63,982 nucleotides of DNA from a virus (IMGVR_UViG_3300007190_000023:1-63982), one strand, 5' to 3'; shown: positions 746 through 63,982, counted from the stretch's first letter. Made by a program: numbers and translations. The notes: a model not told the origin generated them from the letters alone.

Positions 746-1255
746 ATGTCCTATATCCCCATTGCTCCTCCTCCCAAACCTGTACCAGACCCTTTCAACC
801 CCAAGGACAACTACACTCCCCTGGTTCCATATCAGGATGTGACTCATCTTGACTATGCCCCTTTGACCAATGGGGAGATCACTAGAAGGGTAGCCTTTCC
901 TAGAAGTCTCTTTAGGAAGCCTTGGGAATACCTCTCTAAGGGCTCTGTAAGGCCCTGTGAGGCTCCTCCTAAGCTTAAGAGCTACTCACCCCTTGCTGGG
1001 CTCATGCTTGGTCATGGAAAAGCATTTGATGCGGTTCAGAATGAGGACAATGGGCTCTGGTACAGGAAGCAGGGAATTGATCCCAGAGCTATTGTTGAGA
1101 TCAAAGATAGTATTCAACTCTATGGTCATTGCTTCCCTCATCCTTGTGAAGATGCTCAATGCATCCTGTCTTATAGAGAACCTGATTACTTTCAACTGGA
1201 TAAGTATCATAAGCGGGTTCTGGGGTATATGTACTTCAGGGCTAACTATCCTTAA
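746..1255 (+). CDS. Hypothetical protein (169 aa)
   Basis: Complete ORF starting 10 nt after the previous stop, same strand. No motif recognised. Confidence 0.6.
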   Translation: MSYIPIAPPPKPVPDPFNPKDNYTPLVPYQDVTHLDYAPLTNGEITRRVAFPRSLFRKPWEYLSKGSVRPCEAPPKLKSYSPLAGLMLGHGKAFDAVQNEDNGLWYRKQGIDPRAIVEIKDSIQLYGHCFPHPCEDAQCILSYREPDYFQLDKYHKRVLGYMYFRANYP

Positions 1256-27200: not shown

Positions 27201-29738
27201 ACCATGAACTTAACTGCTTCATTACTGTCTGCCCAGAAGACAGAAGATAGGGCAGAGACCATCAATACACTGTTGATGTCAGCAGAGGTTCCAAATGTGG
27301 TTCAGGAGCTTGTCAGAGACGTCATTGGCAAGACAGACAGTAATCGAGATGTCTTGAGCCTGATGAAAAAGAACAAAGCAGCTACCCAACAGGTCAGACA
27401 GCTATATAGACAAGAGTTACCTGCAACCATTCTGTCTTACTTTAAGGAAGTTCCCAGTAAAGAGGAACTATCCATAATGACAGAAGGATTAATGAAGACA
27501 GATATTGCAGCCATCCAAGGTTCCTCTGAAGAGATACTCCAACTCCTGCAAGATCAGGATGCTAGATGGAACCGGACGAGGGGATTAATGAGAAGGATGT
27601 CTGCTGTCCAATTAGAGAAAGCAGATCAACTAGTTCGATATATGAATACAGGTATTCCTGGTTCAATGTTATTGAGGAATGCTGATGAGATCAGTCGATA
27701 TGACCCTAAGACAAAACAACTCAAAACAAAAGGCAATATCAATCAAACTAAAGTGATTGATGAATATGTTTCTTTAAGAGCCTATGAAAACAAGAGTGAT
27801 GAAGTTAGAGAGGGTATCTCTATACTTGTAGAGAGAGAAGGGACTGCTATCAAGAAAGTCATTAATATCCTGAAAGGAATGAAACTAAGCAGAACCAAGG
27901 AAGGTAGAGAGATGGGCTTTAAAGGTCATATCCCATATTCCCCCAGAACTGGGCAAACCATTCAGGTATTTGAGGAGAAGGATTGGGTAGAGATGAAAAG
28001 GAGAGGATGGGTAATGAAAGGAGAAGCATGGACCCCCAAGAGGATTGTGAGCAGGTTAGGAGTAAATGATATAGAGAAGAAAGCCTACTTCTATCTACCT
28101 GCTGATGCTCAATCCCGGTTCTCTCAGGGGATTATTCAAGATATCCACCAAAGCACAAATGGGGTCTATAAAGAGACTGGATGGACTTCAGGTATGAACT
28201 TGGGTATCCATACAGACAGGGTTTCTGTCAAGTACATTCAGAACCTAAGTGAAGATCAATTCAATCATCCTGAAAGTTTCATTCCTGTCTTTACCAAAGA
28301 AGGAGAGTTGAAGGGATTTGAATCTTTACCAGACCAGAACATCATGAACATGCTTGACCCTGAAACAGAACTTCATATGTTGATTGGTATTGGTAAAGGA
28401 AGAAGTATTGAAGAGACCAGAGCTCAGATGACCAATGAACATTTCATTGATCGAGTCATGGATATGTTCAAGAAAGAACATGGTCCATTACATCCTTCAC
28501 AGGAAGGGTTCCAACCTAAAGAACATTGGGTAGATGTACTCCAGATGTATCGTGATATGCGGATAGGTGGAGTTAAGAAAGACCCTGTGTTCATGGAAGC
28601 TGTAGAGATGATTCCAAGAGAGACTCTTGAATATGCTAAGAAACAATATGGTGCAGAGGTTCTTTACTTACGTAAGGATTTATTGACTCAAGCATTAGGG
28701 TATAGACAAGCTTCAGTACGTGATCTCTATACAGGGAACCACAGGCTCAATAAGGAATATACAGAAGTAGCCAGAGAATGGTTAGATCATTTCTTTGGTA
28801 TGACAGGAGCTGGGTATAAGTCCTTACTGTTAGCAGAGAAATGGATACAGGAAGGTGTCCAAGTTGCAAGATCAACCATTGTAGTTAGATCAGGTAAGGT
28901 AGCTCTTGCCAATATCTTCTCTAACCTGGTTCAACTCAAGATGAGAAGGGTCTCTGCCAAAGAGTTGCTGGTACATGGTAGGGTCTCATACAGGGAGGTT
29001 CAGGAGTATCTCAAGAACAGGAAGAAAGGAATCCAATTTCAGACTGAACTTGCTTCATTGGAACCAGGGGATATTAAGAGAAGAACCCAACTGGTTAAAC
29101 AGATTGACTTCATTAAAGAGAGAAATCAGAAACTCTCTATCTGGCCTTTACTTGAGAGAGGGGAATTCACTTCTATCCAAGATGGAGCCGGTATGAGTGA
29201 TACTGTAGAAGAGATCAGAACCACAGGAATGATGAATGCCATAGAACAACATGTCTATGGAAACATCAAGAATGAGAAAGCAAGGAGAGCATTGAGGGAG
29301 ATCACAATGGATACCAACTCATCTATCTTCCGGTTCATGCAGAACACGGTTCAGTTAGGGGATTTCCTATCTAAAGCGGTTCTGTATCAGAGTTATCTGA
29401 ACCGGGGGATGAGTTCTGATATTGCATTAGATAAGATCAATGAGGAGTACATTGATTATGATCTCTTACCAGGTAGAACCAGAGGAGCATTCGAGAATAT
29501 GGGCTTAATCTGGTTTGCTAACTATTCATTGAGATCAATGAAGGTCGCTCTAAACATCATCCAAGAGAATCCTGTAACAGGTCTCTTGGGGTTCAGTGCT
29601 GCTACAACCTATGATTGGGAGAACCCGATCAAAGATACATTGCCGGGTAAGGTATTAAGAGGAACCATAGGATACTCATATGGTCCGGGTCAAGGATACT
29701 CAGCACCTTTCAAACATCCCATGCTGGCAATGTGGTAA
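18234..29738 (+). CDS. Giant virion-associated RNA polymerase (N4 gp50-like vRNAP), 3834 aa
   Basis: Single uninterrupted 11.5-kb ORF. The central region carries T7-like single-subunit RNAP motifs: A LELDGVHSGPTML (about 23941), B FKDPVMITTYGAG (about 24261), C VEAVHDGVN (about 24975). It is the last gene of the late module, as in N4. Confidence 0.85.
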   Translation: MSTSYLDSLLSNLPKQPELTRASEEDRNELANLNPSSWTALKDKEIGMGSASPVERDARTLTPQQLVDKYGFETANAYWGSHDEAMNRASTLLQDSKQSPVDLLQDATTGIVGGVARGLFDTAGFIASGAGTQPNVVSEVLGSASDRVSDLTQSARSNAGVMGSELSDLELGLRVRDNRALRNEERANGTGSVVANLKEMGRNFIDTFASQNTASVTGFIAEGVGSTAASIPVIGQTSKAANALSKLAQTSARTRAIAPSIAAQTARGEAQAARIADQLTRYAPTTTAVLQEQVAARTANNINRLNRLTQGVPGIADTVTNRTLLAMPGIAAMELGGTISDVSNQIGAMSHEELMEISPEYNRKLIAHMAEGKSEAQARKLAKDELITTATRAAVSTSLVPTLAASALGGWLNRAPLGRGTAPALSNRTWGELGREMLSEGTEEFIQGISGTYAGNVAMRTVNPSQELTEGVGESAAQGLIGGIGTPVAIAGGRRVLTEGVSDVTNVATATAQAAGKVAGNVARTLQVKETEKSDTQGTMQYEPTELPQEAQEVVQEVEVKKPTLPRAIQEIAVQLGKETEPNEIMRKGEAFYQLKAEAEQRLESLINKEDITEEEKQEALVLSNNMNKLFNSERVLKSESHINKAAQSQIESNTVEPENTIKAFALATRDYDYSKLTAEGATQQLENLNTILDNEGTELNAALRFQLEAHRLNLRVTNEALAQSSLEGRTPEELASASTMLLRENAVKVWEKSVVQHVKKIANEWVKGDMQNAGNSVEDFQAFATHMSNKAQASLQALQAPYGKGDKVAKVPYESLSQVTRNFRDSRLQKFETKEVWNNFNPKAIRFLQANLGEAATVINAYNSLIDLVANSLPEEAQRNSVLESKVPALVIPSNFTKSPDEILKMSKAGTLSTPNNRNTENVTENVETTPETGSEAVRDAGRESRASESTEATEGLSTQEPTQESTQTGSAQEIRTQEGTVQGSIQEGRTQERQGQTSERPKMDSEGIERAKQSQSLQQEEITSSPPPVTVPTNTPKTDTGGVLLPKAKNQKAETHAKDQAKTDKATAFIGEGSPGSNANRYREAWGDRANKGSYTAEDVVHVSTNGGKNKASRIPFNQEELDRAIAAGATILTDIPTDRKTPYNMGEREVATYLSENGYIEPQKDGVWVKGEETKPKKATKKVATPKPQIEEEEDTDYGDFVGTPKPKSPPTQSTSEVVNPSSDPEGYGDFAAKPTKAPKPTKVQAKAPEPTPEPIQNPSEAFREDSVDESVGRPQSMTEEPVEEDRGAVLSSLAQETQTDVEASTKNLFHQGKDLFKVSKRRAGNPYVMSQKGNEFLKTDLMGWSTPNATLNRRVQEMFEGDAKKVASKASVQQFLNDRMYEQFTYRFRKVDIKDAGIDLSREQIKTKNELRAYIQKYPDVREALLATGLDVLTGTGNPIMDRALFFVKLEELGDYSNHPDWGLNKVKNKNPGGTNHLDLPEHMFMGLLDSTGSKVSDLAVNTVHLVVNQVIGDSSLFNTSILDQFPAHYFKANSGAEYNRAKPYLDKSTNGPMLQRMISQSIKDQLNLAENKDMPLNKIEGFYHSMSLQVIRYMESKGLIQKEQITLQGPNDSKITPWFYTRRLPIVDSDLILSKELNRMVGENTEAGNQSGWSIKEPGKASFYKVDGFSKNNALQRKIINDLITNNPFKIDKGVLDEVNKFSPEEIADRFFPLPNRHKAHPDVVIAVDSQRNNFINAIKETQAIKLSIELAGQDAFNTPIFFDINSTSVDRFQFKGSYNPQGNKLMRELVLATYNTIDPKNPEHMEHFFRGVLQAVGGKPAKMTRDQVREAIKPVLTKFNRIKKQGNLPWFSQEMKNQLVNAFGEKDYSPLMIHVGMEVFKYLDNPTESFESSLYLELDGVHSGPTMLTLIYGTDSPFEEKTKHLMELGGLTPSSEPVSQAEIYADGRPDFYGEVAQGVSEELLTAGTSDVAPELREVLFSQVAEAVEGAYIEDGELWFNRNAFKDPVMITTYGAGDRAVANIHADEMIKTMQKDINDWQTGVSGTRAKVAQWDQFLTALLETPVKLTPNAVLSRKQISKIKNTYTEVFSEVFRNELDTRFGPALANAKELVRINEIIDKALISRFNKDMEALINEQRKAGIIGPKDMMTKGAYESLIRTYKEQGISITNNGLNNIPFMKWGSQVQTKLPKFATYIEGSKTQGYAPYLHLPSLSGVSILAKSVQGMGDVRVLQEAASKMKGVEAVHDGVNVSPVNAIAYSKLLNRGVEKVAQTNIYKDYLDSLRRVDELFELNVEGMTTLNSATREREPALIYETLEELASRRGNFVFTFSNTPYSIDHMGGAAQPYLTQSESSHSKVVIEPENVRAWINNRTLPDDSNVIVNTLFKTFTSNNRTPSIVITDNNVIMAGNDAAFDRGSNTIYLSRNHSDNALVHELIHAATYQVLSTPVESLSQEARESINRLNQMYDRILKSDKPEVQALVQQIKSNTSSRAEELMEFVAYGLTDHKAILQAFNSRETFKGIALKIIKRLLGLDKNIEEATTNTMYDGLLFHTVLLSNESTNIQSSGVLFHTAPTSIHLEEARDVLKGMVQSAVRKRDDVLGPTYEFNQVVHHLENAEDELLSLKAQGFSFDEVEHQTFINVYAVLDTNDAVQVLNTPELSSMSERFMNLLEYSLLPESQKTYLNSIPGSRFHKVFIPLLLTNEPFQSIVQEAFDRVSPVDRGRLLVDPEVIEISRNHVVEFTAPNPVLLEVHLEAKNAIFAEDIGTRERMEQEPDWIESEPNLFIHSTVLPIKLDRAFLGTPVTYEDRPYTSLAHLLSEVEELDRDHLLASLRVQLAENPKLLSLLENTGVQPLIHEDERLVDLFTQLRSENRVEDNYNEEPEPSPLEYGSSLLRDIQRQFSKPPKRVDEVARATIKALEETVARREENLAEQALGALGSLQRSLDEKGLDFMHRASNALEKAGEKVRDNAVTKKGKFLGETMNLTASLLSAQKTEDRAETINTLLMSAEVPNVVQELVRDVIGKTDSNRDVLSLMKKNKAATQQVRQLYRQELPATILSYFKEVPSKEELSIMTEGLMKTDIAAIQGSSEEILQLLQDQDARWNRTRGLMRRMSAVQLEKADQLVRYMNTGIPGSMLLRNADEISRYDPKTKQLKTKGNINQTKVIDEYVSLRAYENKSDEVREGISILVEREGTAIKKVINILKGMKLSRTKEGREMGFKGHIPYSPRTGQTIQVFEEKDWVEMKRRGWVMKGEAWTPKRIVSRLGVNDIEKKAYFYLPADAQSRFSQGIIQDIHQSTNGVYKETGWTSGMNLGIHTDRVSVKYIQNLSEDQFNHPESFIPVFTKEGELKGFESLPDQNIMNMLDPETELHMLIGIGKGRSIEETRAQMTNEHFIDRVMDMFKKEHGPLHPSQEGFQPKEHWVDVLQMYRDMRIGGVKKDPVFMEAVEMIPRETLEYAKKQYGAEVLYLRKDLLTQALGYRQASVRDLYTGNHRLNKEYTEVAREWLDHFFGMTGAGYKSLLLAEKWIQEGVQVARSTIVVRSGKVALANIFSNLVQLKMRRVSAKELLVHGRVSYREVQEYLKNRKKGIQFQTELASLEPGDIKRRTQLVKQIDFIKERNQKLSIWPLLERGEFTSIQDGAGMSDTVEEIRTTGMMNAIEQHVYGNIKNEKARRALREITMDTNSSIFRFMQNTVQLGDFLSKAVLYQSYLNRGMSSDIALDKINEEYIDYDLLPGRTRGAFENMGLIWFANYSLRSMKVALNIIQENPVTGLLGFSAATTYDWENPIKDTLPGKVLRGTIGYSYGPGQGYSAPFKHPMLAMW

Positions 29739-32582: not shown

Positions 32583-32659
32583 TGGTGCGCCTGAGAGGAC
32601 TCGAACCTCTGACCCTATGCTTAGAAGGCATATGCTCTATCCTGCTGAGCTACAGGCGC
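32583..32659 (-). tRNA. tRNA-Arg (anticodon UCU), CCA encoded
   Basis: The reverse complement is GCGCCTGTAGCTCAGCAGGATAGAGCATATGCCTTCTAAGCATAGGGTCAGAGGTTCGAGTCCTCTCAGGCGCACCA. It folds as a canonical cloverleaf: 7-bp acceptor, GCTC/GAGC D stem, TATGC/GCATA anticodon stem with loop CTTCTAA, and AGAGG/CCTCT T stem with loop TTCGAGT. Confidence 0.9.
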
Positions 32660-48405: not shown

Positions 48406-49575
48406 TCAACTCAAAGCATAGTCTGCTTGTTGGATACAACGACTGAAGTTATCCTTCTTCTCTCTACTCCATTCTTTAACACACACCTGGTTTAAGACAA
48501 AGGAACCTACATCACTTTCTGCCAGTTCAGACAACACCTGGTTATAGGTTCTCCTCAATACATTTCCATACCTGTACTTGACACCAAAACAGTCATGTGC
48601 ACAGAGAACATCAATCCTTTCATCAGGCAGGGAACCAAGGAGCTTATACACAGCCTCATTGAACCGTGGAGAACACCTGTTTAGTGATTTGAACCCATAC
48701 ACATGAAGATAACTGAGTACTCTTGCACTCAGGAACCCTGTGCTATCAAAGTAGGTATGGAGTCTTTCCAGTACATCCTCCTTGATGTCATAGGTATCTC
48801 CTTGAACCTCAGGGAATGGGGAGGTGTATCTCAATCTCCTGATGACTTCCCTTTGTACAAATGCATCTAATGAATGAACTACATTAGCACTTAAGCTCTT
48901 ACCCATAAGAGCAGGTTTACTGACTGTCCTTGTAACTGCATATTTCTTATCCATGAATGTCACTATCTTTACTTCCTGGTTCCATACAGGACATACCACA
49001 TGGAACCCATCAGACATGAACCATTCATGTCTGTCTGTCTTTCTATTCCATGATGCCTGTAATAGCTGGTTCATATACCAAGGTTCCTTACAGTGCTCTC
49101 TTAGAACCTGATAGAACTCATGTTGTAAATCCTTCTGAACCAGTATGCGTGAAGGAGTTGCTTGACTTCCATAGAATGCAGTCATTACAGCTTTCTTAAT
49201 GTCTTTCCTTTTGATTCCTTTCTCCTTACATAACTCCATCTTGTCATATAACTCTGTATATACATCATATCTCTTACCTCCTAGTAAGTTAGTCCATTCA
49301 GCAGTCTTGATGTCATGAGAGATACAACTCATTAGCTGTAACCCAGATGCTGTTGCATCCAATTGCACTATTCCATCCTTATTCCTATTCCTGTAATTCC
49401 ATACAGCAACTTCATATAACTCTGGTTCTTCAGCTTCAGTTGTATATCTTTCCAGGTTCTCTTTATTCTCTTGAACCCAGAGAAGCCTATCTATCCATGA
49501 TTCCTTATCCAATCCAAAGCTATTGGCTATCTGGATATGGCAGTAATCTTCTTCACTAAACAGACTCATCTTCAT
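48406..49575 (-). CDS. T7-like RNA polymerase, catalytic C-terminal subunit (N4 RNAPII gp16-like), 389 aa
   Basis: Motif A VQLDATASGLQLMS (T7: DGSCSGIQHFS). Motif B KKAVMTAFYGS (T7: KRSVMTLAYGS). Motif C LCAHDCFGV (T7: HDSFG). The C-terminal ADYALS resembles the T7 FAFA foot. Confidence 0.85.
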   Translation of the reverse strand: MKMSLFSEEDYCHIQIANSFGLDKESWIDRLLWVQENKENLERYTTEAEEPELYEVAVWNYRNRNKDGIVQLDATASGLQLMSCISHDIKTAEWTNLLGGKRYDVYTELYDKMELCKEKGIKRKDIKKAVMTAFYGSQATPSRILVQKDLQHEFYQVLREHCKEPWYMNQLLQASWNRKTDRHEWFMSDGFHVVCPVWNQEVKIVTFMDKKYAVTRTVSKPALMGKSLSANVVHSLDAFVQREVIRRLRYTSPFPEVQGDTYDIKEDVLERLHTYFDSTGFLSARVLSYLHVYGFKSLNRCSPRFNEAVYKLLGSLPDERIDVLCAHDCFGVKYRYGNVLRRTYNQVLSELAESDVGSFVLNQVCVKEWSREKKDNFSRCIQQADYALS

Positions 49576-49922
49576 TTCTTTCTCCTATCTTCAAGAGAAA
49601 CCAATGTATCTCCTCCTTGAACCCAAAAGATATCTTTGTCGTCACGAAAGCAATAAGCCTTTCCATTTGAACTCGGGTTATTGAACAGGACATTAGCCAT
49701 TACTGTCTTCAATCCCGGTTCCATCATCATTATCATCAGTCTCTTTGTTAACTTATCTTCACTGACTTCAAATACCTCCCTGTGATCTGCTTCCTCAATG
49801 CCATAGATCATTAACTCCTGTACTCCTTTACGTGCTTTCATTACATGGTCTTTACTTTTGTATTCAGCCAAAGGATTCCCAAATGCATCATATCCAGTCT
49901 TGATCTTAATCTTCATATTCAT
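49572..49922 (-). CDS. Hypothetical protein (116 aa) between the two RNAP subunit genes
   Basis: Complete ORF translationally coupled to the RNAP catalytic subunit gene (overlap 49572-49575). Confidence 0.6.
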   Translation of the reverse strand: MNMKIKIKTGYDAFGNPLAEYKSKDHVMKARKGVQELMIYGIEEADHREVFEVSEDKLTKRLMIMMMEPGLKTVMANVLFNNPSSNGKAYCFRDDKDIFWVQGGDTLVSLEDRRKK

Positions 49923-49940
49923 TTCTTTTCTCTCTTTATA

Positions 49941-49968
49941 TAAATAATAAAACCCCTCAATCGGGGTT
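49941..49968 (-). terminator. Intrinsic terminator downstream of the small RNAP subunit gene
   Basis: On the minus strand, aaccccgattgaggggtt (6-bp GC-rich stem, 49951-49956 / 49963-49968) is followed by TTTATTATTT. Confidence 0.6.
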
Positions 49969-49979
49969 CATGAATACAA

Positions 49980-50005
49980 CTATTGGAACCGTACCTATTG
50001 GAACC
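49980..50005 (-). repeat. Tandem pair of the GGTTCCAATAG motif (15-nt period), minus-strand orientation
   Basis: The plus strand reads ctattggaacc (49980-49990) gtac ctattggaacc (49995-50005). The same motif and spacing occur at 52273-52303. Confidence 0.9.
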
Positions 50006-50022
50006 AGGGAGAGTGAATACTT

Positions 50023-50655
50023 CTACCCAAATTGAACCAGTGCTTTATGTAATGAATCTCCTTGGTAGTTCACAGTCCATCCATCACAGTACTGCCTACC
50101 TCTCACATCAAGGTAGTGGTTCATTGTGAAGGTAGTCACGTTTTCTCTTTCATAGTCCTTCACTGTCTCCTTCATCATCCAAGACTCAATCTGTCCGTAG
50201 GACTTCTTCCATTTACTTTCCTTGAGTATTTTGTGTCGAATTAGTGGGTGTAAGGACAGTCTGGTTGCAGATGACATAGAGAGTACTTCAGGGCATTTAT
50301 CAGTCACTTGATGAGGTTGGTTGGTCATTTCATTAGGGCGGGAGTTTATATAACTCTCTTTCCAAGGTTCGTCATGGACTATCAATACCTTCTTGGGTGG
50401 TTCAATGAGGTAGAGATAATCTCTTTCTAAACCAATGACTTGGGTATTCATAAGGCGGGTAAGGAATACATCTGGTTCGTCCATATGTCCTAGCATGTTC
50501 AGGACTGTCTCTACCCTCAATGCACTTAACCATAGTTGTTTGATTAGCTTAAGTGCTTGTTTTATCTCATGTTTATCTAAGGTATTCAGCTTGGGTTCAT
50601 AGTGATTGTACAGGTAAGGTCGTACTTCACTCTCTCTTAAGGGATGAATAGTCAT
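50023..50655 (-). CDS. T7-like RNA polymerase, N-terminal subunit (N4 RNAPII gp15-like), 210 aa
   Basis: The C-terminal HYLDVRGRQY matches the T/DxxGR motif of single-subunit RNAPs (T7: MDWRGRVY). It lies just upstream of the catalytic subunit gene. Confidence 0.6.
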   Translation of the reverse strand: MTIHPLRESEVRPYLYNHYEPKLNTLDKHEIKQALKLIKQLWLSALRVETVLNMLGHMDEPDVFLTRLMNTQVIGLERDYLYLIEPPKKVLIVHDEPWKESYINSRPNEMTNQPHQVTDKCPEVLSMSSATRLSLHPLIRHKILKESKWKKSYGQIESWMMKETVKDYERENVTTFTMNHYLDVRGRQYCDGWTVNYQGDSLHKALVQFG

Positions 50656-51483: not shown

Positions 51484-51593
51484 GACTAACTCCAAGAAAA
51501 TAACGACCCAACATTAGGCCAAATGGACGGGGAACGAGCGATAGCGAGTTAACCGGACATTAATCTCTAAGGGTAATTAAAGGGGGTGGTTAT

Positions 51594-51615
51594 CTATGTT
51601 TCACGTGGAACATAG
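51594..51615. repeat. Near-perfect 22-bp palindrome centred on CACGTG
   Basis: ctatgttTcacgtgGaacatag has one mismatched pair. It is followed directly by a G7 run (51615-51621), which is complementary to a C7 run at 51654-51660. Confidence 0.9.
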
Positions 51616-51660
51616 GGGGGGTATGTTTTAGGTGTGTAGTTATAAATAACTGACCCCCCC

Positions 51661-51709
51661 AAATTAAAATTAAAATTAAAATTAAAATTAAAATTAAAAA
51701 AAAAAAAAA
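51661..51709. repeat. (AAATTA)x6 tandem repeat running into an A14 tract
   Basis: Read directly: aaatta x6 at 51661-51696, then the poly-A run through 51709. Confidence 0.95.
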
Positions 51710-51860
51710 GAACAGTAAAATTACCCCAATAGTATTATATTTAAATACCAAATTACCAAAGATAATTACCTAAGTGATAATAATAATACTAAGGGTATTA
51801 GAGAACCAGATTAGGTATTAAACATATAACCTTATTACTCACCCCATCCTCACTCTATAT

Positions 51861-51987
51861 CTCCCTTGGTTCATTGCGTTATGACAAATGATTTATAGAG
51901 TAGGGAACACCGAAGCGTAGCGCAGCGAAGCGTAGGTGTTCCCTACTATAGAAATCTTGCAGTTATAAAAGCAATGAACCAAGGGAG
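51861..51987. repeat. Nested perfect inverted repeats (17-bp outer, 13-bp inner) forming a potential cruciform
   Basis: Outer arms: ctcccttggttcattgc (51861-51877) / gcaatgaaccaagggag (51971-51987). Inner arms: agtagggaacacc (51899-51911) / ggtgttccctact (51935-51947). The 23-nt loop is gaagcgtagcgcagcgaagcgta, with a duplicated GAAGCGTAG. Confidence 0.95.
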
Positions 51988-52217
51988 AGTAAAGAAATGA
52001 AGATATAAAAACTTATAACTCTATATAGGTATATAAGGGGCGGAATGAGATAGAAGGATATCTCTATCTTTATCTCTATCTCATAAGCCGGGAATGAATG
52101 ACTATATAGATATATCTATATGGGAGGAGCCAGTAGGGATAAGAGATATGAACCAGTAAAGATATGAACCAGTGAAGGAAGGAATGATGATCTTAGTCAT
52201 TCAATCCCGGTTCAATG

Positions 52218-52262
52218 AGATATAAGGGATATAAGAGATAAGGGAGATATAAGAGATATCTC
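52218..52262. repeat. GATATAAG x3 direct repeats ending in a 12-bp perfect palindrome
   Basis: gatataag occurs at 52218, 52227 and 52245. The palindrome agagatatctct is at 52251-52262. Confidence 0.9.
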
Positions 52263-52272
52263 TTACATTCCC

Positions 52273-52303
52273 TGGTTCCATTGGGTTAGGTTCCAATGGG
52301 TTA
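52273..52303 (+). repeat. Tandem pair GGTTCCATTGGGTTAG / GGTTCCAATGGGTTAG (15-nt period)
   Basis: Read directly. Related copies are GGTTCCAAAGG at 52331 and GGTTCCAATAG at 52770. The block GGGTT(A/G)ATAGGAGGGTA is repeated at 52297-52314 and 52365-52382. Confidence 0.9.
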
Positions 52304-52551
52304 GATAGGAGGGTATATGTTGATAGAACCTGGTTCCAAAGGGTTCAATGAGAGCAAGTTCAATAGGGTTGATAGGAGGGTAGGTCCAATCTCATCGACT
52401 GTACCAATAGAGGGAGATGGTTAATCCTGATAGGAACCCTAGGAATAAGAGAGAAAGATCAGAGAACATATCCTGCTCTTCTAGGTTCAAGGTTTATAGA
52501 TACGAGCTATCGCCCATCCAATAACGAACCCTAGGAGAAAGATAGAGAGCT

Positions 52552-53600: not shown

Positions 53601-54335
53601 TTAGGCTCTTATGTTCTCTGGGAGGAGGTGAGGAGGAATCTTATGCAAGAAGGAAGGAGGAGCATATCTTAGAGTTCCTCGTAACCGTACATAACCTTCA
53701 GGAATTGAACCAGAATCAGGGAAGTGGAAGGTATTGGCTTTTATCTCATCTAATGAAGCAAACTCAATATCCTGTTCTGTATTGAGCTCCTGAGGGGGTT
53801 TAATGGCGACAGGAGGAATGGGGTTAGGTTTGATAGCGGTAGGTTGTTGGTAAGTTGGGGTGTTCTTCTGATGTTTTTTCTTTGGTTTACTGTTCTTATA
53901 GACAGTGGTAGTGCTTCTCCTTTGACGTCTCCTGGTTCCTGTTCTCTTAAAGAACTCCTGATCTCCTTTCTCTTTATAGAAGAGAAAGTGTTTCAACATC
54001 TCATCTCTACTCACATCCCCAGACCATCCTTCATGAGTGAGATGGCTTCCTTTACGGAATAGGGAGGAATGGTACCTGGTGAAGGTGAACAGGATTTCTT
54101 TAGCTAGGAACCCTGAAGCAGAGATACGTTGTAAGGATAGGGTTCTAGTCCCTGTAGAAGGCGACCATGACTCTTTGATGATCTTAGCCTTGATGTATCT
54201 GACTCCTGCCTTGAATCTCTTACCTCTGCGTTTAGGGGAGGTCATGTAAGCATAGTCTTTATTGAATGCTGGTTCCCTGAAGGAGATGATGTCTCCAGGG
54301 ATTGGGTAGTAACGATCTTGTAGCTTTGCGTTCAT
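53601..54335 (-). CDS. First early ORF; member 3 of the paralogous set with a basic/Pro-rich C-terminal extension (244 aa)
   Basis: Start moved to ATG 54335 (MNAKLQDRYYPIPGDIISF...), which has GGAG 7 nt upstream. The 36 upstream codons of the track ORF translate an AT-rich promoter/terminator region. Confidence 0.6.
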   Translation of the reverse strand: MNAKLQDRYYPIPGDIISFREPAFNKDYAYMTSPKRRGKRFKAGVRYIKAKIIKESWSPSTGTRTLSLQRISASGFLAKEILFTFTRYHSSLFRKGSHLTHEGWSGDVSRDEMLKHFLFYKEKGDQEFFKRTGTRRRQRRSTTTVYKNSKPKKKHQKNTPTYQQPTAIKPNPIPPVAIKPPQELNTEQDIEFASLDEIKANTFHFPDSGSIPEGYVRLRGTLRYAPPSFLHKIPPHLLPENIRA

Positions 54336-54436
54336 GTCAACACTCCATCTGATTGATTGATGATTGATAAGCTTTTTATTCTTACTGATATATTTATATT
54401 TATATATACGTATATACAGTAAATAAAGGCTCTTCC

Positions 54437-54471
54437 AAAACAAAACCCCATCAGCAAAAGCTCATGGGGTT
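54437..54471 (-). terminator. Strong intrinsic terminator, leftward, upstream of the first early ORF
   Basis: The minus strand reads aaccccat-gagcttttgctg-atggggtt (8-bp stem, 54444-54451 / 54464-54471), followed by TTTTGTTTT. Confidence 0.7.
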
Positions 54472-54535
54472 CTTATGGTTTAGGTATAGGGATGTTTCTA
54501 TTGTTAGTACACTCAGTACATTTACAAATTACAGG

Positions 54536-54570
54536 CAACAAAATAAAGAGGGACTTGTAGTTGCCTCTTT
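54536..54570 (-). terminator. Second leftward (possibly bidirectional) intrinsic terminator
   Basis: Stem aagagg (54546-54551) / cctctt (54564-54569). It is followed by TTTATTTTGTT on the minus strand and TTTTT on the plus strand. Confidence 0.5.
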
Positions 54571-54605
54571 TTAGCTGTTAGTAGGGTTTTTTAAAATTCA
54601 TGGGG

Positions 54606-54635
54606 AGGGAAACACATACCTATTTTCCCTTTTTT
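54606..54635 (+). terminator. Rightward intrinsic terminator-like hairpin
   Basis: Stem agggaaa (54606-54612) / tttccct (54624-54630), followed by TTTTT. Confidence 0.5.
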
Positions 54636-54639
54636 CTGA

Positions 54640-55698
54640 ATTTTAGACACAACTATCCTCTAATGATTGTACTGCCTCTTGCTCTAACTACCGATCTAGA
54701 ACCGTTACTTCCAGCCTGTTTGGAGGAACCAAAGCACGTGGAGTCTACTGAAAGAGAGACAGAAGAGACCAAAAGATAAGATTAGGTGACTCTACTCTGT
54801 GGACTGTTGCCTGAATTGTGAAAGAACACCCCATCTCACAATAGATGGGTGTTTGTGAAATATTTACCGGCAATGCTGATAAGCTCCGGGGTACATCAAT
54901 GGTTTCGCGTTATGACTGTTACTTAGCAGACCCAGCCCTTACAAGAGGAATCCGGGGAAACGTAGATAAGTGGTTAGCCATTCATATTCCCTATGAGGCA
55001 ATGCCCTACTTGGACACCACAACATAAGGTGCTTCCTAGCTATCCCCCCTTCCCGTATTGATTAGTAGGAGGGTGCATCCTCATCTTTATAAAGCAGTGC
55101 TCTTCTAAGCACATAGTCCAGAGGATGCCCACGGTAGTCAGAAGGGATAAGCTTTTCACAAACGTGAGCGATAAGTACATGGTACCCACCCTCAATGTAA
55201 GGTAGTGTCTCCTAGCCCTACACTCTCACCCCTTAAAACCGCCGTTCTCGATATTTGTTGGCAATGGCTCCTTAGGTTATCTTGGGTCAAGAATTTAGGT
55301 GCAAACCTGCTCTTGTGTATCCTACGCCCCTCAAACTTGGACTCCTCCCCTAGCCATGTGTACCCTAGGCTAGGTCAGCATCCCTATGAACTATAGAAGA
55401 GATGCCAGGAGGCTTGACCACAACACTCAGCCCTTACCCTAAGGATTCCTCACCTTGGTTCACCTAAATATTAGCCAAGGTCACGGTTTATCCTCAGATA
55501 AGCTGTCCCCCTTCTATCTACATTGTTGAGAAGACAACATAGATAACCTGAAGGGTTCTGTCCTCGTAGGTATCCATCCTACCCTCACCCAAAGATGAAC
55601 TTCTGGATGTGCTTATTGGGTCTCATAGCCTTTCGCCAAGTGTCGGCCCAATAAGAGGAAGCCAGAGGGTAACGTAAACCAAAAGGGTTAGTCAAGGG
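54640..55698. other. ORF-free, GC-richer, hairpin-dense block: candidate large structured RNA and/or genome terminus with early promoters
   Basis: No ORF has an RBS, and stops of all three types occur in every frame. Hand GC counts give 48-58% per 60-nt line, against about 35-40% in neighbouring genes. There is a series of perfect 5-10-bp helices (listed in the findings). The strand is undetermined. Confidence 0.4.
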
Positions 55699-55767
55699 GT
55701 GTGTTACACTTTTTTAAGTAAATCGTGTAAAAATCTGACATTCCCCTTATTTAATGTGGCTACAACA

Positions 55768-56463
55768 ATGACAATGAAGAAGATTCACCCATCCAGAGCA
55801 CTCTACACAGCAGAGGAGCTGACCTTAGACAAGCTGAAGGGGAGCCTTCCTAAGCACATCAGGGACTACACCACACAGGAGACCTATGAGAAGGTGGTAG
55901 GGATGCTGAATGGGGATGCAGAGCTTAAGAGACAGGTAGCACAGAACGTCAAGCTGATAGAAGAAGGAGATGGAATCAGGCTAGATGAACTGGTCAAGGC
56001 TACAGCCTTTGTGACGTTCAGGCTTCAGGGAATGAACAACAAGGAGGCATGGTCAGAGGTATTCCCTGAACTGGCGTACAAGTACAGTGACCAGTTTGGA
56101 GCCAGAGGGGTTCCACAGAGAGCCAAGGCATATGCTAACTCTAGGCTTGTAGTGAAGCTGATGGAGCATTCCATTATCCCGAGTTGGATTAGGAATCATG
56201 GGGCTTATCAGGAGGCAGTGGATACACAGCTAGACTTGATGAGAAATGCACATAGTGAGACTGTAAGACAGAAGGCAGCAGACAGTTTGATGACTCATTT
56301 GGCTAAACCAGAGAAAGGAGTTCCACAGGTTCAGATTGAAGTGAATGAAACCTCAGGGCTCAATGAGATTAAAGAGATGCTGGATTCACTGGCTATGAAC
56401 CAGAGGAAGAGTATTATTGAAGGAACCCCTGTGAAAGATATTACAGATATAGAGGTTTCTTGA
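55768..56463 (+). CDS. Putative small terminase subunit (about 231 aa)
   Basis: First gene of the rightward module, ending 1 nt before the large terminase start. The start was set at the first ATG (55768), because the track start at 55699 is a GTG in the non-coding leader. No strict motif was recognised. Confidence 0.5.
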   Translation: MTMKKIHPSRALYTAEELTLDKLKGSLPKHIRDYTTQETYEKVVGMLNGDAELKRQVAQNVKLIEEGDGIRLDELVKATAFVTFRLQGMNNKEAWSEVFPELAYKYSDQFGARGVPQRAKAYANSRLVVKLMEHSIIPSWIRNHGAYQEAVDTQLDLMRNAHSETVRQKAADSLMTHLAKPEKGVPQVQIEVNETSGLNEIKEMLDSLAMNQRKSIIEGTPVKDITDIEVS

Positions 56464-56464
56464 T

Positions 56465-58108
56465 ATGGGAGCAATGAAAGAGAGTGATAAGAAAGCTACC
56501 TTAAAAAAGGAGAAGAAAAGCCTTCATCATCATTTAGATGATGTGGATTATGCTTGGTTGAACAGTAATAAATATACTCCTTATCAGGAGTCATTGAAGT
56601 TCATGAACTTCATTAAGTTAGTGAATGGGCATAGGAAAGAAGGAAATAAAACTCCACCCATGCACCTTAGGATGATTGACAAGCTGGTTGAAGATAGAAA
56701 CTATGTAGCAAATCTCTGCTTCCGTGGTTCAGGGAAGACCACATTATTTATGGAGTACCTGGTTCTTTATTTGGCAATGTTTGGAGAATGGCCTCATCTA
56801 GGCAAGGTTCATGGGGTTCTGTACATATCAGACTCAATGGATAACGGAGCCAAGAGTGCAAGGAAGAACATTGAGTTCCGGTTCAATGAAAGTGATTTCT
56901 TGCAGGAATGGATACCAGAAGCTAAGTTCACAGATGGAATGCTTGAGTTCAAGAACAAAGCAGGACATCAATTAGGAGTGAGGTTGTTTGGTGCAACAAC
57001 AGGGCTACGAGGAACCAAGATATACGGGAAGAGACCTGTTATAGCGATTCTGGATGATCTGGTCAGTGATGAGATGGCAAGGAGCAAAGTCACAATGAAT
57101 CTCATTAGGGACACTGTATATAAAGGAGTCAATCATGCATTGGACCCTACCAAGAGGAAGGTCATCTTTAATGGAACCCCATTCAATAAGGATGATGTAT
57201 TGGTAGAAGCAGTAGAGAGTGGAGGTTGGAACATTAACGTATGGCCTGTCTGTGAAAAGTTCCCTTGTCCTAGGGAGGAATTCAGAGGAGCTTGGGAAGA
57301 CAGGTTCAGTTATGATTACATCCAAGATCAATATGATTTAGCTGTAGCAACAGGGAAGACAGATGCTTTCTATCAGGAGTTAATGCTTAGGTTAAGCAAT
57401 GATGAAGATAGACTCATACAGGAAGCAGAGATCGGGTTCTATAGCAGACAGGCTCTATTGAGCCAGAGAGAGAAGTACAATTTCTATATCACCACTGACT
57501 TTGCAGTGAGTGCCAGACAATCAGCAGATTTCAATGTGATTTCTGTTTGGGCGTATGGAGGAGACAAGAATTGGTACTGGGTAGATGGGATATGTAAAAG
57601 ACAAACACTTGACAGGACAATAGAAAGCCTGTTTAATCTGGTCACTGAATATGAGCCTCAGCAAGTAGGAATAGAGATTGCAGGGCAACAAGGAGGGTTC
57701 ATACAGTGGATTCAGAAAGAGATGGCACAAAGGGATATCTGGTTTAACTTCGCCAGTAACAGCCCTAACAAGACAACACCAGGGATAAGACCAGTGAAGG
57801 ATAAGCTCTCACGGTTCAATCGGGTTGTTCCCCTGTTCAAGCAGGGAAAGATCAAGTTCCCTCAGGAGATGCAGGGTTCCATCGTAGTAGGAGAGTTCCT
57901 ACAAGAATTGAGACTAGTCACTCATAGCGGGATTAAAGGCAAAGATGACTGCCTTGATACGATCTCAATGCTAAGTGACTTAGACCCTTGGAACCCAGTA
58001 GGCTCAGCAGAACCTACTACAATCAGCACTCCTCAATCCCCCTTATGGGATGACCATACACATGAACAGAGAACAGGCCAGACAGGCTATGAGAGCTACA
58101 TAGTATGA
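56465..58108 (+). CDS. Large terminase subunit (547 aa)
   Basis: Walker A CFRGSGKTTL and Walker B-like VIAILDDLVSDE. The C-terminal RNaseH-like nuclease segment has YITTDFAVS...DFNVISVW and GKDDCLDT. Confidence 0.85.
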   Translation: MGAMKESDKKATLKKEKKSLHHHLDDVDYAWLNSNKYTPYQESLKFMNFIKLVNGHRKEGNKTPPMHLRMIDKLVEDRNYVANLCFRGSGKTTLFMEYLVLYLAMFGEWPHLGKVHGVLYISDSMDNGAKSARKNIEFRFNESDFLQEWIPEAKFTDGMLEFKNKAGHQLGVRLFGATTGLRGTKIYGKRPVIAILDDLVSDEMARSKVTMNLIRDTVYKGVNHALDPTKRKVIFNGTPFNKDDVLVEAVESGGWNINVWPVCEKFPCPREEFRGAWEDRFSYDYIQDQYDLAVATGKTDAFYQELMLRLSNDEDRLIQEAEIGFYSRQALLSQREKYNFYITTDFAVSARQSADFNVISVWAYGGDKNWYWVDGICKRQTLDRTIESLFNLVTEYEPQQVGIEIAGQQGGFIQWIQKEMAQRDIWFNFASNSPNKTTPGIRPVKDKLSRFNRVVPLFKQGKIKFPQEMQGSIVVGEFLQELRLVTHSGIKGKDDCLDTISMLSDLDPWNPVGSAEPTTISTPQSPLWDDHTHEQRTGQTGYESYIV

Positions 58109-61382: not shown

Positions 61383-63982
61383 TATCATCATTAAGTTCAG
61401 GGATTGGGAGGGCAATGAATATGATATGCCCTTATTTGAATACTTGGATAATGGGAGTGCTACCCTACAAAACATAATAGATGAAGAGGAACCTGACAGA
61501 AAAGTTAGAATGCATACCAACACTTCTGCTAACTCATCTCAATACTTTAGTACTAAGTACTCAAATGTGTTTCCTTTTAGGGCTAACCCTAGCAATAATG
61601 GGTTCACACAAGTAAATGGTTACGCTCTTCCTACCCAAATCAGAAGTAAAGAAATCTATGGAGAAGTCCCATACACCCTAAGTGATTCTATAAGTAAAGA
61701 TTTACCTAATAAACCTATTAACTTAACAAATTTTATTGATTTCTATCCCATCCCCTTAGGGGATTATAGTTTAAGATTTAAATTTCAAAGGTTTTTGTAT
61801 GATTTCGTTTTAAGTCGTGTTGGGGATAAGTTATTTAAATTTAGCTTAATCACTACAAAAGAAAGTAATTTGCCTCTTATAACACCTCTAAAGGATGAGT
61901 ATTACTATACTTTCACTCTACCGAATACTTTAGAGGATATTGAGTACTCCTTTTCTCCTTTCTTTCTGTATAAGGAACTATCTGTTTCAACATTAGAAGA
62001 AATAATCCCAAATATTGAAGAATTTACTAAATACAATTTTGATTCTAGTTATGTAGTTAATTTACAAAATTTACCCCCATATGGTGGTACAGAGGAGATT
62101 GTTAAGACATGGGGTCCAGTATCTAATTATAATCTTAATGCCCCTCCTTCATCTCATTTCTCACACTTCAATCTGGCAGGTCTGAACGTAATTCCTAAAT
62201 TCTTAAGTAAGAATAATATAAAAATTTACCCATTAAGAATACTAATGGGTAATCAACATTCAACGTCTGTTGTTAAAATTTCTCCTGTACACTTTACACC
62301 TAACTATTCCTCTTCCACGTTTACGGGGGAATACACTATACCCAGCCTCTCTACGAATAATAATATTAACCTAACTCTTAATCTCAGGTTGGATATGGCT
62401 TCTCAGACATTTACGGCTTTTGTTGCTATAGCTAATCTACCTAATATATATACGCAATATGCTGATGCAGTAGAGTTATATAATGACTCATCTACTGAAG
62501 TAAAACTTACTACTTCTATCCCTAATTTACTATCTTATGCTCCATTAAATACTATATTACCAAAAGTAGGTATTGTATCTTCGGGCACTCTAGTTCCTGC
62601 CTTGAGTAATAATAATATGTTCTTGATTGTGCCTTCTACTTTGGTGTACGCACTTGGGCATTGTGACCCCTACCAACTTAAGTTTAAGTCTAATTATACC
62701 CCCTATTCTCTTGTACAATGCTGCGGCATTTTTATTTACGCGTACTCTACGGAAGAAACTCATGAAAAGTTTAGGGAATTTCTGTATAAAAACTTCCCTG
62801 TTCTACTGCATAGGCACACTTCAAAAACTCCTTTTGTTTCTAGGAACCTTAATTCGTTTTTGAATGCAGGTATTCCTGCACCATATCTCTTTACTCCTTT
62901 CCCTACTACTCCTACTATTGATAATCTTAAAATATGTGCGTATAAGTTATACCATAAGACCCTTTCAGGCTCCTTGAATAAAACTGTTAACGAATATTCT
63001 AAGTTTGAAGTAGTAGATCAAAATACTGATAACTATACCTTTAGTGCGGAAGGTACATTGTACTTGATTCATCAAAAAGACCCTGTAGAAGATAGTGTTG
63101 CTATGGGACTTACCCAAGTATACATTTTAGAATTCAGTAACTCAGGGAATAACTATCAGAATCAAGTAATGGAATCCAGAGTATGTACCCATTACTCTAG
63201 TTTGCCCGTAAGCTCTGTGGCAAGTCTTGTGGGTACAAACAAATGGGTTAATACTAATAACTTATTGGCTTTAAATGTATTCCACCTTCCTACTTTCAAT
63301 AGCTTATCTGTTTATCCCCCAACTCTTAAAAAGATTACCTACCCTGATGCATTAGGTCTCAGTAGTTTAGATTTTTCTCAAGAACATCATATAAAATTGG
63401 AACACTATCCTATTCCACCAAATAGGAGAATTTGCTACCAATACCCTGAATCAACATGTGAAAATATCTTTGAAGTAAGGAATGTACATTCTTCTTCTTT
63501 CATCTATAAATTATCCTTAACAGGTCCTAAGATAGTTCCTCATTATTATTCAGACAGTGATATTACTAGGATAGATAATCAAGAGTTCTATGCGAGAGCT
63601 TTATACAATAACCCTCCAACCTTAGTTAGTAACTCCAGGGTTACTGTACTCATGGCCTGTTTCCATCAAAATGGGACATGGAGTGTAGGTTCACCTTCCC
63701 CTAATATCATGCATATCAACCAATCTACTTACACTGATATGTTCAGGGCTATTAAAGATTTCTTTGGTTTCTGGCTCCCTGATTTAGGGGAAACTACAAA
63801 TAACTATATAGTAAAGTTTGAAGTAGTTACTCCTACTCTTGGGGATTACTTTATTTACAACACTCTCCCAACTGATTGGACAAACATAAGCATTTCTACT
63901 CTAACTCCTTATATTGTTTTCGGTATCTCTACTGTTAATGCTCCTACTGCCAATACAACAAAAACTGTGCAAGTAACCATGC
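61372..63982 (+). CDS. N-terminal 870 codons of a wrap-around 899-aa tail fibre / receptor-binding-like protein (continues at 1..188)
   Basis: Hand translation from ATG 61372 (which overlaps the previous stop at 61380-61382) finds no stop up to the window end. It is absent from the ORF track only because it has no in-window stop. The product is Asn/Thr/Ser/Pro/Tyr-rich and the DNA is about 30% GC. Confidence 0.8.
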   Translation, partial: MSDNIIIKFRDWEGNEYDMPLFEYLDNGSATLQNIIDEEEPDRKVRMHTNTSANSSQYFSTKYSNVFPFRANPSNNGFTQVNGYALPTQIRSKEIYGEVPYTLSDSISKDLPNKPINLTNFIDFYPIPLGDYSLRFKFQRFLYDFVLSRVGDKLFKFSLITTKESNLPLITPLKDEYYYTFTLPNTLEDIEYSFSPFFLYKELSVSTLEEIIPNIEEFTKYNFDSSYVVNLQNLPPYGGTEEIVKTWGPVSNYNLNAPPSSHFSHFNLAGLNVIPKFLSKNNIKIYPLRILMGNQHSTSVVKISPVHFTPNYSSSTFTGEYTIPSLSTNNNINLTLNLRLDMASQTFTAFVAIANLPNIYTQYADAVELYNDSSTEVKLTTSIPNLLSYAPLNTILPKVGIVSSGTLVPALSNNNMFLIVPSTLVYALGHCDPYQLKFKSNYTPYSLVQCCGIFIYAYSTEETHEKFREFLYKNFPVLLHRHTSKTPFVSRNLNSFLNAGIPAPYLFTPFPTTPTIDNLKICAYKLYHKTLSGSLNKTVNEYSKFEVVDQNTDNYTFSAEGTLYLIHQKDPVEDSVAMGLTQVYILEFSNSGNNYQNQVMESRVCTHYSSLPVSSVASLVGTNKWVNTNNLLALNVFHLPTFNSLSVYPPTLKKITYPDALGLSSLDFSQEHHIKLEHYPIPPNRRICYQYPESTCENIFEVRNVHSSSFIYKLSLTGPKIVPHYYSDSDITRIDNQEFYARALYNNPPTLVSNSRVTVLMACFHQNGTWSVGSPSPNIMHINQSTYTDMFRAIKDFFGFWLPDLGETTNNYIVKFEVVTPTLGDYFIYNTLPTDWTNISISTLTPYIVFGISTVNAPTANTTKTVQVTM
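63884..63982. repeat. Terminal direct overlap, copy 2 (identical to 1..99)
   Basis: Read directly; see the feature at 1..99. Confidence 0.95.

Follow-up and report, generated by a model that had tools for sequence, protein, structure and literature searches.

What occupies the kilobase between the divergent early and late gene modules of an N4-like phage, where no protein appears to be encoded? The question is raised by positions 54640-55698 (hereafter the block) of the viral sequence IMGVR_UViG_3300007190_000023, whose whole length of 63,982 nucleotides (nt) is referred to here as the window. The ends of the window overlap by 99 bp (1-99 / 63884-63982), and it is therefore a circularly assembled, complete genome, that of a 63.9-kb N4-like phage (Schitoviridae). 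An earlier note, made from the sequence alone, had read the block as a large structured RNA, transcribed leftward and ending at terminators near 54.5 kb; our findings support that reading through an excess of helix-preserving double substitutions that is absent from coding controls and through a conserved promoter and terminator on the minus strand. We hold with moderate confidence that the block is a gene whose product is a structured non-coding RNA of ~1.1 kb, confined to one small clade within the N4-like phages (Schitoviridae). Judged from three sequences, this rare N4-like lineage probably has its own, new family of large structured RNA, transcribed leftward.

Base pairing, strand and limits of a predicted RNA

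No open reading frame (ORF) of at least 70 amino acids (aa) starting at ATG or GTG is present in 54336-55698, as the earlier note had claimed for the block, and this is the largest such gap in the genome. On the left, a minus-strand gene for a very basic protein of 244 aa (53601-54335) begins at an ATG at 54335 that is preceded by GGAG, and the non-coding gap therefore extends over 54336-55767 (1.43 kb). On the right stands the N4 gp69-like gene (phrog_2109; 55768-56463, plus strand), which opens the late/packaging operon. Two metagenomic contigs carry an equivalent region: L001, an IMG/VR contig whose gp69-like protein is 68% identical to that of the window, and L201, a second contig from the metagenome of L001, found through its 244-aa neighbour protein. 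Both share one layout, namely a 244-aa-type gene, a conserved block of AT-rich sequence, a terminator hairpin, an ORF-poor stretch of ~0.95 kb and the gp69-like gene; this stretch has a G+C (GC) content above that of its own genome, with more C than G on the strand that corresponds to the window's plus strand. The ORFs called in the block of L201 are broken in L001, and substitutions are evenly spread over codon phases.

As shown by comparison of relatives, the sequence of the block appears to be under selection to keep base pairs. L001 and L201 are 86% identical over 3.1 kb, with 124-141 differences in the block. Structure was predicted from one sequence alone, and the substitutions of the other sequence were then scored on the predicted pairs. 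Compensatory double changes numbered 9-11 when 2.3-2.9 were expected on redistributing the substitutions (P<=0.001), and 29-42 pairs were broken against an expectation of 46-56 (P<=0.009). Because the substitutions are clustered, a control was added in which the 3' partner is slid along the sequence: pairs changed on both sides amounted to 11-16 in the real structures and to a mean of 5.5-8 in the slid ones. Three coding controls of similar divergence gave 1-4 compensatory changes for ~3 expected, with broken pairs at expectation. In an RNAalifold consensus, the structure of which derives from the same two sequences, 14 pairs were changed on both sides, compared with 0-2 for slid partners and 7.0 +/- 1.9 in shuffles. 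In addition, symmetric deletions of 3 nt affect both arms of a hairpin, CAACAACC-CGAA-GGTTGTTG in L001 becoming CAACC-CGAA-GGTTG in L201. The core (L001 4360-4559) is 94-97% identical between the two contigs, while the block as a whole is 86% identical and the third codon positions of neighbouring genes are only 52-86% identical. The alignment of homologues with a covariation check that the earlier note had proposed accordingly yields a compensatory excess in L001 and L201, from a set of two to three sequences that lies below R-scape grade. Hand-anchored alifold z-scores (-4.6 and -4.2) were set aside as circular, their anchors having been picked as helices, and so was a three-way MAFFT/alifold treatment of the core, in which the window was misaligned.

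Elements of the same organization recur in the window, all on the minus strand. The comparison of relatives shows what appears to be a conserved core of ~310 nt that a long-range helix (P1) closes and beside which a hairpin (P0) stands, with more variable arms around the core. P0 (54826-54852) has a stem of 7-10 bp and a 6-nt loop (AUUGUG on the RNA); it reads CCCATCT[CACAAT]AGATGGG in the window, GAACATC[CACAGT]GATGTTC in L001 and AAACACC[CACAAT]GATGTTT in L201, so that the loop is conserved and 7 of 11 pairs are changed on both sides. In each of the three phages P0 lies immediately beside one arm of P1, a perfect helix in which 54851-54860 would pair with 55154-55163 (GTTTGTGAAA/TTTCACAAAC in the window, span 312 nt; GTTTGAAGAAG/CTTCTTCAAAC in L001 and L201, span 313 nt), the variable halves staying complementary. 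Our first criteria for matching stems were too permissive to inform, and the tight agreement at P1 was noticed post hoc. Hairpin HB (54867-54889) combines a conserved loop, AGC.UA.U.GCAUUG, with a changed stem (CCGG/CCGG in the window versus GGACAA/UUGUCC in L001 and L201, three pairs changed on both sides). The island A hairpin (54928-54953; GGAUUC-CUCU-UGUA-AGGG-CU-GGGUCU) contains a 19-nt sequence island common to the window and L001 4312-4330, and island B (55136-55172), located in the best-conserved core, is collinear with L001 4500-4530 on the diagonal of island A. A further candidate helix, P2 (L001 4426-4433/4488-4495), is unproven, as it is expected by chance at the tolerance used.

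A covariance model of 163 nt on the minus strand, R1, built from L001 and L201 only, finds its best match in the whole window at the syntenic site (54822-54954, minus strand); this match counts as evidence because of its location, not its score. In the resulting three-way alignment, fitted as it is to the model, all cells that can be compared are paired, including all pairs of island A, and 11 of 40 pairs are changed on both sides against 0-5 for slid partners, seven of these changes falling in P0 and three in HB.

The limits of the predicted transcript are likewise shared by the three phages. A candidate sigma-70-like promoter on the minus strand (55666-55695) consists of a -35 hexamer TTGACT (55695-55690), an 18-nt spacer and a -10 hexamer TACCCT (55671-55666), with a predicted transcription start near 55659. 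L001 (4924-4895, minus strand) and L201 read TTGACA-N18-TATCCT at the equivalent place, giving TTGACW-N18-TAYCCT as the consensus of the three; the hexamers of L201 are identical to those of L001, and all three substitutions fall within the spacer. We infer that 55666-55695 would serve as the promoter of the RNA. The promoter named in the earlier note (55731-55703) did not hold up, its position not being conserved. At the opposite end, the leftward terminators placed by that note at 54.44-54.57 kb are recovered as hairpins at 54444-54471 and 54545-54570. The first to be met, the intrinsic terminator t1 (54536-54570, minus strand), has AAAGAGG/CCTCTTT as its stem, with a U tract behind it on the minus strand; its counterpart in L001 and L201 is AACAGG/CCTGTT plus CTTTTTT, which includes a compensatory change from G:C to C:G. 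The second, t2 (54433-54471, minus strand), with 12-nt arms that are 92% complementary followed by TTTTGTTTTGG, is found in the window only and is absent from L001. Bounded by the conserved promoter and terminator, the predicted non-coding transcript would cover 54538-55659 of the minus strand, that is ~1.12 kb, or ~0.95 kb in L001 and L201.

Because Watson-Crick helices are identical on both strands, the choice of strand was approached through wobble pairs. Single substitutions that keep pairing are at expectation on the minus strand (25 vs 24.3) and depleted on the plus strand (11 vs 20.6). In this regard, the island A hairpin of the window has four G.U pairs on the minus strand, which would be A.C mismatches on the plus strand, and the P0 hairpin of L201 contains a G.U pair on the minus strand only. 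The earlier note had left the strand open, with a few G-T pairs in favour of the plus strand; the G.U pairs now tilt the question towards the minus strand, while its neutrality stands for the Watson-Crick excess, which is equal on both.

Several points weigh against a leftward structured RNA. Three sequences, two of them close relatives, are too few for a test of R-scape grade, and most of the block is unalignable between the window and L001: blastn, nhmmer, MAFFT, Smith-Waterman with a shuffle null and ungapped diagonals gave no significant alignment of the two (best P ~0.1), with the three best local matches on one diagonal (50623-50636) and both edges of the block conserved. The P1 match is not significant under loose matching criteria (P=0.32), R1 matches the window at E=0.042 only, with an equal score at an unrelated site, and the window escapes a second model, R2, that was derived from the best-conserved core. 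With G.U disallowed the strand test gives a trend only, the -10 hexamer TACCCT is weak, and the transcript is a prediction from sequence signals. Finally, the folding energy of the block is unremarkable. The helices listed in the earlier note are all present where it placed them, but its claim of a notable hairpin density is not confirmed, since minimum free energy (MFE) z-scores in the block overlap those of flanking genes and coding controls: they range from ~-0.5 to -2.5 in 150-nt windows, similar to the flanking genes, and only the terminator region (54350-54650) stands out in that scan. Taken as a whole, the block of the window scores z = -2.3 on the minus strand and -3.1 on the plus strand, and that of L001 -4.2 and -3.2, against -0.3 to -3.0 for the coding controls.

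Rival readings of the locus

The best-surviving alternative, which we nevertheless consider unlikely, is that function resides in the plus strand, where the block would give the late/packaging operon (from 55768) a long, structured 5' leader or a regulatory RNA acting in cis. The equal compensatory excess, with helices that are the same on both strands, is compatible with it, the plus strand alone accommodates a T.G pair of the candidate helix P2, and a C-rich leader could be a Rho loading site. The depletion of pairing-keeping single changes on the plus strand and the four A.C mismatches that the island A hairpin would carry there argue against it; moreover, no conserved plus-strand promoter is found at the left edge of the block, and in L001 and L201 it is the minus strand that offers the terminator the better U tract.

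The block might also be non-functional DNA, made of decayed genes or of stuffer without a selected role, as its poor alignability, its unequal length (~1.12 vs 0.95 kb) and its ordinary folding energy would allow. We find this quite unlikely. The translated search for a decayed gene left no protein remnant, with zero matches in a six-frame Pfam search of the block and nothing by six-frame tblastn against L001, and the insert is retained in all three members of the clade although the ancestral gap measures <100 bp. The core identity of 94-97%, the compensatory excess missing from coding controls and the conserved promoter and terminator also speak against it. Furthermore, the GC content of the block is above the genome average (46.6% vs 41.4%) and does not drift toward AT. 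The distinct composition described in the earlier note is confirmed in that the block is GC-richer, with more C than G on the plus strand, but not as a unique property: its GC content lies ~1.7 standard deviations above the mean of 1-kb windows, which places it in the top 5 of 127. That note's count of four GGTTC/GAACC pentamers in the block is exact, corresponding to 3.8 per kb vs 8.1 per kb genome-wide.

A third possibility, to which we give little weight, is that the pairings act in DNA, as extruded hairpins serving as N4-type promoters, a replication origin or a packaging signal. Promoters of N4-type virion RNA polymerases are short, GC-rich stems of 5-7 bp with a 3-nt loop, located upstream of early genes. 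The use of DNA hairpin promoters by N4-like RNA polymerases (PMC9163698) and the proximity of the block to the terminase genes would fit this possibility. The promoter hairpins of N4 and LUZ7 have loops of 3-4 nt, however, whereas the supported helices of the block have loops of 4-6 nt, or spans that go from 6-nt loops up to 312 nt, in a comparison for which hairpins with a 3-nt loop were not searched systematically. Distances of 25-100 nt separate the partners of several compensatory pairs, and G.U (G.T) pairs occur freely. Searches of the block for k-mers and repeats returned nothing that survives multiple testing, and no iterons or repeat arrays.

In favour of the genome-end explanation raised in the earlier note, a collapsed direct terminal repeat together with hairpin promoters of the virion RNA polymerase, N4 and Zuri have their ends flanked by the terminase side and by the first early genes, and CTACAC/C-run motifs on the block's plus strand look like the N4 end on visual inspection. 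The explanation is nevertheless very improbable, given that the conserved end module occurs elsewhere in the window, at 51.58-51.66 kb, and none is found in the block.

Distribution, neighbour protein and proposed role

The insert is a peculiarity of one small clade. In ~40 other N4-like loci recovered via the terminase, the gap upstream of the gp69-like gene measures 73-100 bp, with a divergent gene of ~100 aa usually coming next; the widest gaps among them are of 216-672 bp, and that of locus L007 reaches 852 bp, end module included. The gap of N4 is 160 bp, and the equivalent divergent gap in Zuri is 128 bp. An insert of 1.1-1.4 kb is confined to the window, L001 and L201. Scans of IMG/VR with the gp69-like protein and the large terminase (TerL) recovered only L001, and a search of 5.8 billion proteins with the gp69-like protein returned two close matches, L201 having come only through the 244-aa protein query. 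A scan of metagenome DNA with a 16-mer query, which was too short, returned chance matches only, none of them related by blastn. Likewise, R1 found nothing credible in 77 other N4-like loci. In GenBank phage sequences, blastn in near and distant modes gave no match for the block or for the 24 kb around it, and the terminase of the window is at most ~63% identical to those of cultured N4-like phages.

The 244-aa gene that adjoins the block is equally clade-specific. Among the same 5.8 billion proteins its product has only two homologues, both adjoining the equivalent non-coding block, and it has no match in Pfam, PHROG or PDB. Its AlphaFold model is poor, with a predicted local distance difference test (pLDDT) value of 59, and gives no significant Foldseek match. 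A weak, non-significant likeness of this model to the beta-barrels of Pelota/Dom34 N-domains was also seen. Upstream of the gene, a strongly conserved AT-rich block with a perfect TATATACGTATATA palindrome (54363-54430, minus strand) can be aligned to L001 3857-3918 although the RNA block cannot. It is probably the 244-aa gene's own promoter and the left boundary of the putative RNA unit, and one of the phage's RNA polymerases may use it as a promoter. The RNA and the 244-aa protein may have been gained together, as one module inserted in a gap that normally measures <100 bp.

These features allow us to propose a model for the leftward structured RNA. Host sigma-70 RNA polymerase would start at TTGACT-N18-TACCCT, back to back with the late/packaging operon, and would transcribe the minus strand leftward from ~55659 to ~54540, where it would stop at the conserved intrinsic terminator; this terminator would also insulate the next operon, which has its own putative, conserved AT-rich promoter. 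Our guess at its role is that the folded RNA would work in trans, serving a protein as scaffold or decoy; the adjacent basic 244-aa protein is a candidate partner. More tentatively, and with some doubt, the block may encode an undescribed class of large (~1 kb) ornate RNA, specific to one lineage of N4-like phages, made by the host polymerase late in infection and entering a ribonucleoprotein or a higher-order assembly, possibly with the 244-aa protein, that would act in host takeover, anti-defence or packaging.

The earlier note recognised no known RNA family in the block, a suspicion that proved right, as the block falls below the gathering threshold of every Rfam model. The 4227 models of Rfam 15 tested include GOLLD, ROOL, HEARO, raiA, group I/II introns, RNase P, tmRNA and 6S. 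With cmscan at gathering thresholds, the whole window gives a tRNA-Arg only; at E<=10 the block gives seven chance-level matches, the best with 19.5 bits for a cut-off of 60 bits, and a search of L201 at E<=1 gives nothing within the block. GOLLD and ROOL are large ornate RNAs that form Rfam families and are often carried by phages or prophages. The putative RNA resembles them as a large (0.6-0.8 kb class), multi-domain, phage-borne non-coding RNA in an ORF-free stretch that is GC-richer than its AT-richer genome. Unlike them, it matches none of these models in sequence or structure, is longer (~0.95-1.1 kb), occurs in Schitoviridae and away from tRNA genes, and is represented by three sequences only.

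Within the N4-like group, the Pseudomonas phage LUZ7 produces small intergenic RNAs of <250 nt between orf69 and orf70 late in infection (PMC9163698). These share with the putative RNA the non-coding intergenic transcription in an N4-like phage, seen late in infection in LUZ7 (PMC9163698), but they carry another numbering and probably belong to another locus, with no structure conservation reported and no sequence similarity to the block detected. In the literature we found no report of the element described here, in a comparison that leaves the 10,006 candidate RNAs of PMC10690425 outside.

The packaging RNA of phi29 (pRNA) is another structured phage RNA tied to a packaging machinery, ~170 nt long and found in protein-primed, phi29-like phages; the block, which lies beside the terminase genes, can be likened to it by analogy only. 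Large structured RNAs without a known function are rare, several of them, such as GOLLD and ROOL, travel with phages, and each new class of large RNA has opened structural and mechanistic work. If our reading is true, this would be the first large structured RNA of its kind in the N4-like family. The three-polymerase transcription programme of N4-like phages is a classic model, and the timing, polymerase usage and phenotype of the RNA would be directly testable with a cultured relative or a synthetic construct.

Genome ends and other landmarks

N4 and Zuri share a left-end module made of a G-run, TACAC repeats, C7-9, 26-27 nt and ACCCC, followed by a hairpin promoter and gp1; in both phages the C-run begins 32-33 nt from the physical left end, and the terminal repeat of Zuri is of 457 bp, as annotated in its record. 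The pattern CCCCCCC-N24-29-ACCCC occurs only once in the window, on the minus strand (51583-51621), for 0.02 expected by chance. This match is oriented towards the early genes and preceded by G7, (AATTTT)7 and T15, and the C7...ACCCC pattern stands at the equivalent place in L001, L007, N4 and Zuri and is found in four further N4-like loci. A predicted N4-type left genome end (G7, CTACAC, C7, 27 nt, ACCCC) would thus occupy 51583-51715 on the minus strand. By homology, the end module at 51583-51621 would therefore place the left genome end near 51653-51662, inside the repeat field noted earlier, with the module ~3 kb from the block. Such a likely relocation of the ends (~51.66 kb) matters for the annotation and engineering of the phage.

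Four minus-strand genes (54335-52494) stand between the end module and the block. They match N4 gp70-72 and Zuri gp97-102 in position and would be the right-end genes, which run in the same direction as the early genes, upstream of the repeat. The likeness lies in this place, upstream of the terminal repeat and pointing away from the gp69-like gene; in N4 and Zuri, however, it is filled by small protein genes with ribosome-binding sites and PHROG families behind a divergent gap of 128-160 bp, whereas here 1.1-1.4 kb of non-coding sequence is inserted in the gap. A profile built from the N4 and Zuri ends and run with nhmmer has no match in the block.

The plus-strand motifs of the block that resemble the terminal module, TCCCCCCTT and CCCTACACTCTCACCCCTTAAAACC (55036-55055 and 55212-55240), are in the opposite orientation to it, and an RNA of the minus strand would thus share some complementarity with the end region, a similarity that is not significant by nhmmer. 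The repeat field itself (51661-52500) is rich in short direct repeats built on GGTTC/GAACC, with 15.5 of these pentamers per kb, compared with 3.8 in the block and a genome-wide value, already high, of 8.1. A large palindrome with 32-nt arms (51890-51956) is also found there, flanked by a 21-nt inverted repeat (51860-51988). In L001, a hairpin at ~1110-1150 (minus strand) has the same loop, CTTCGCTGCGCTACG, on a different but complementary stem, which points to a conserved structure ~300 nt from the predicted terminus.

Other landmarks of the genome include the virion RNA polymerase gene (3834 aa, 18234-29738), the split genes of the N4-type RNA polymerase (48406-50655, minus strand) and the large terminase gene (56465-58108). 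By BLASTP the early genes show no homology to gp1 of N4 and Zuri. An apparent ORF-free gap of 2.6 kb at the end of the window is an artefact, because a 911-codon ORF from 61336 spans the circular junction. The tRNA-Arg (anticodon TCT; 32583-32659, minus strand) is the sole Rfam or ARAGORN match in the genome. Finally, the large terminase comprises 547 aa in the window and 882-883 aa in L001 (5675-8323) and L007 (6683-9334), a difference that suggests an insertion in some lineages, possibly an intein.

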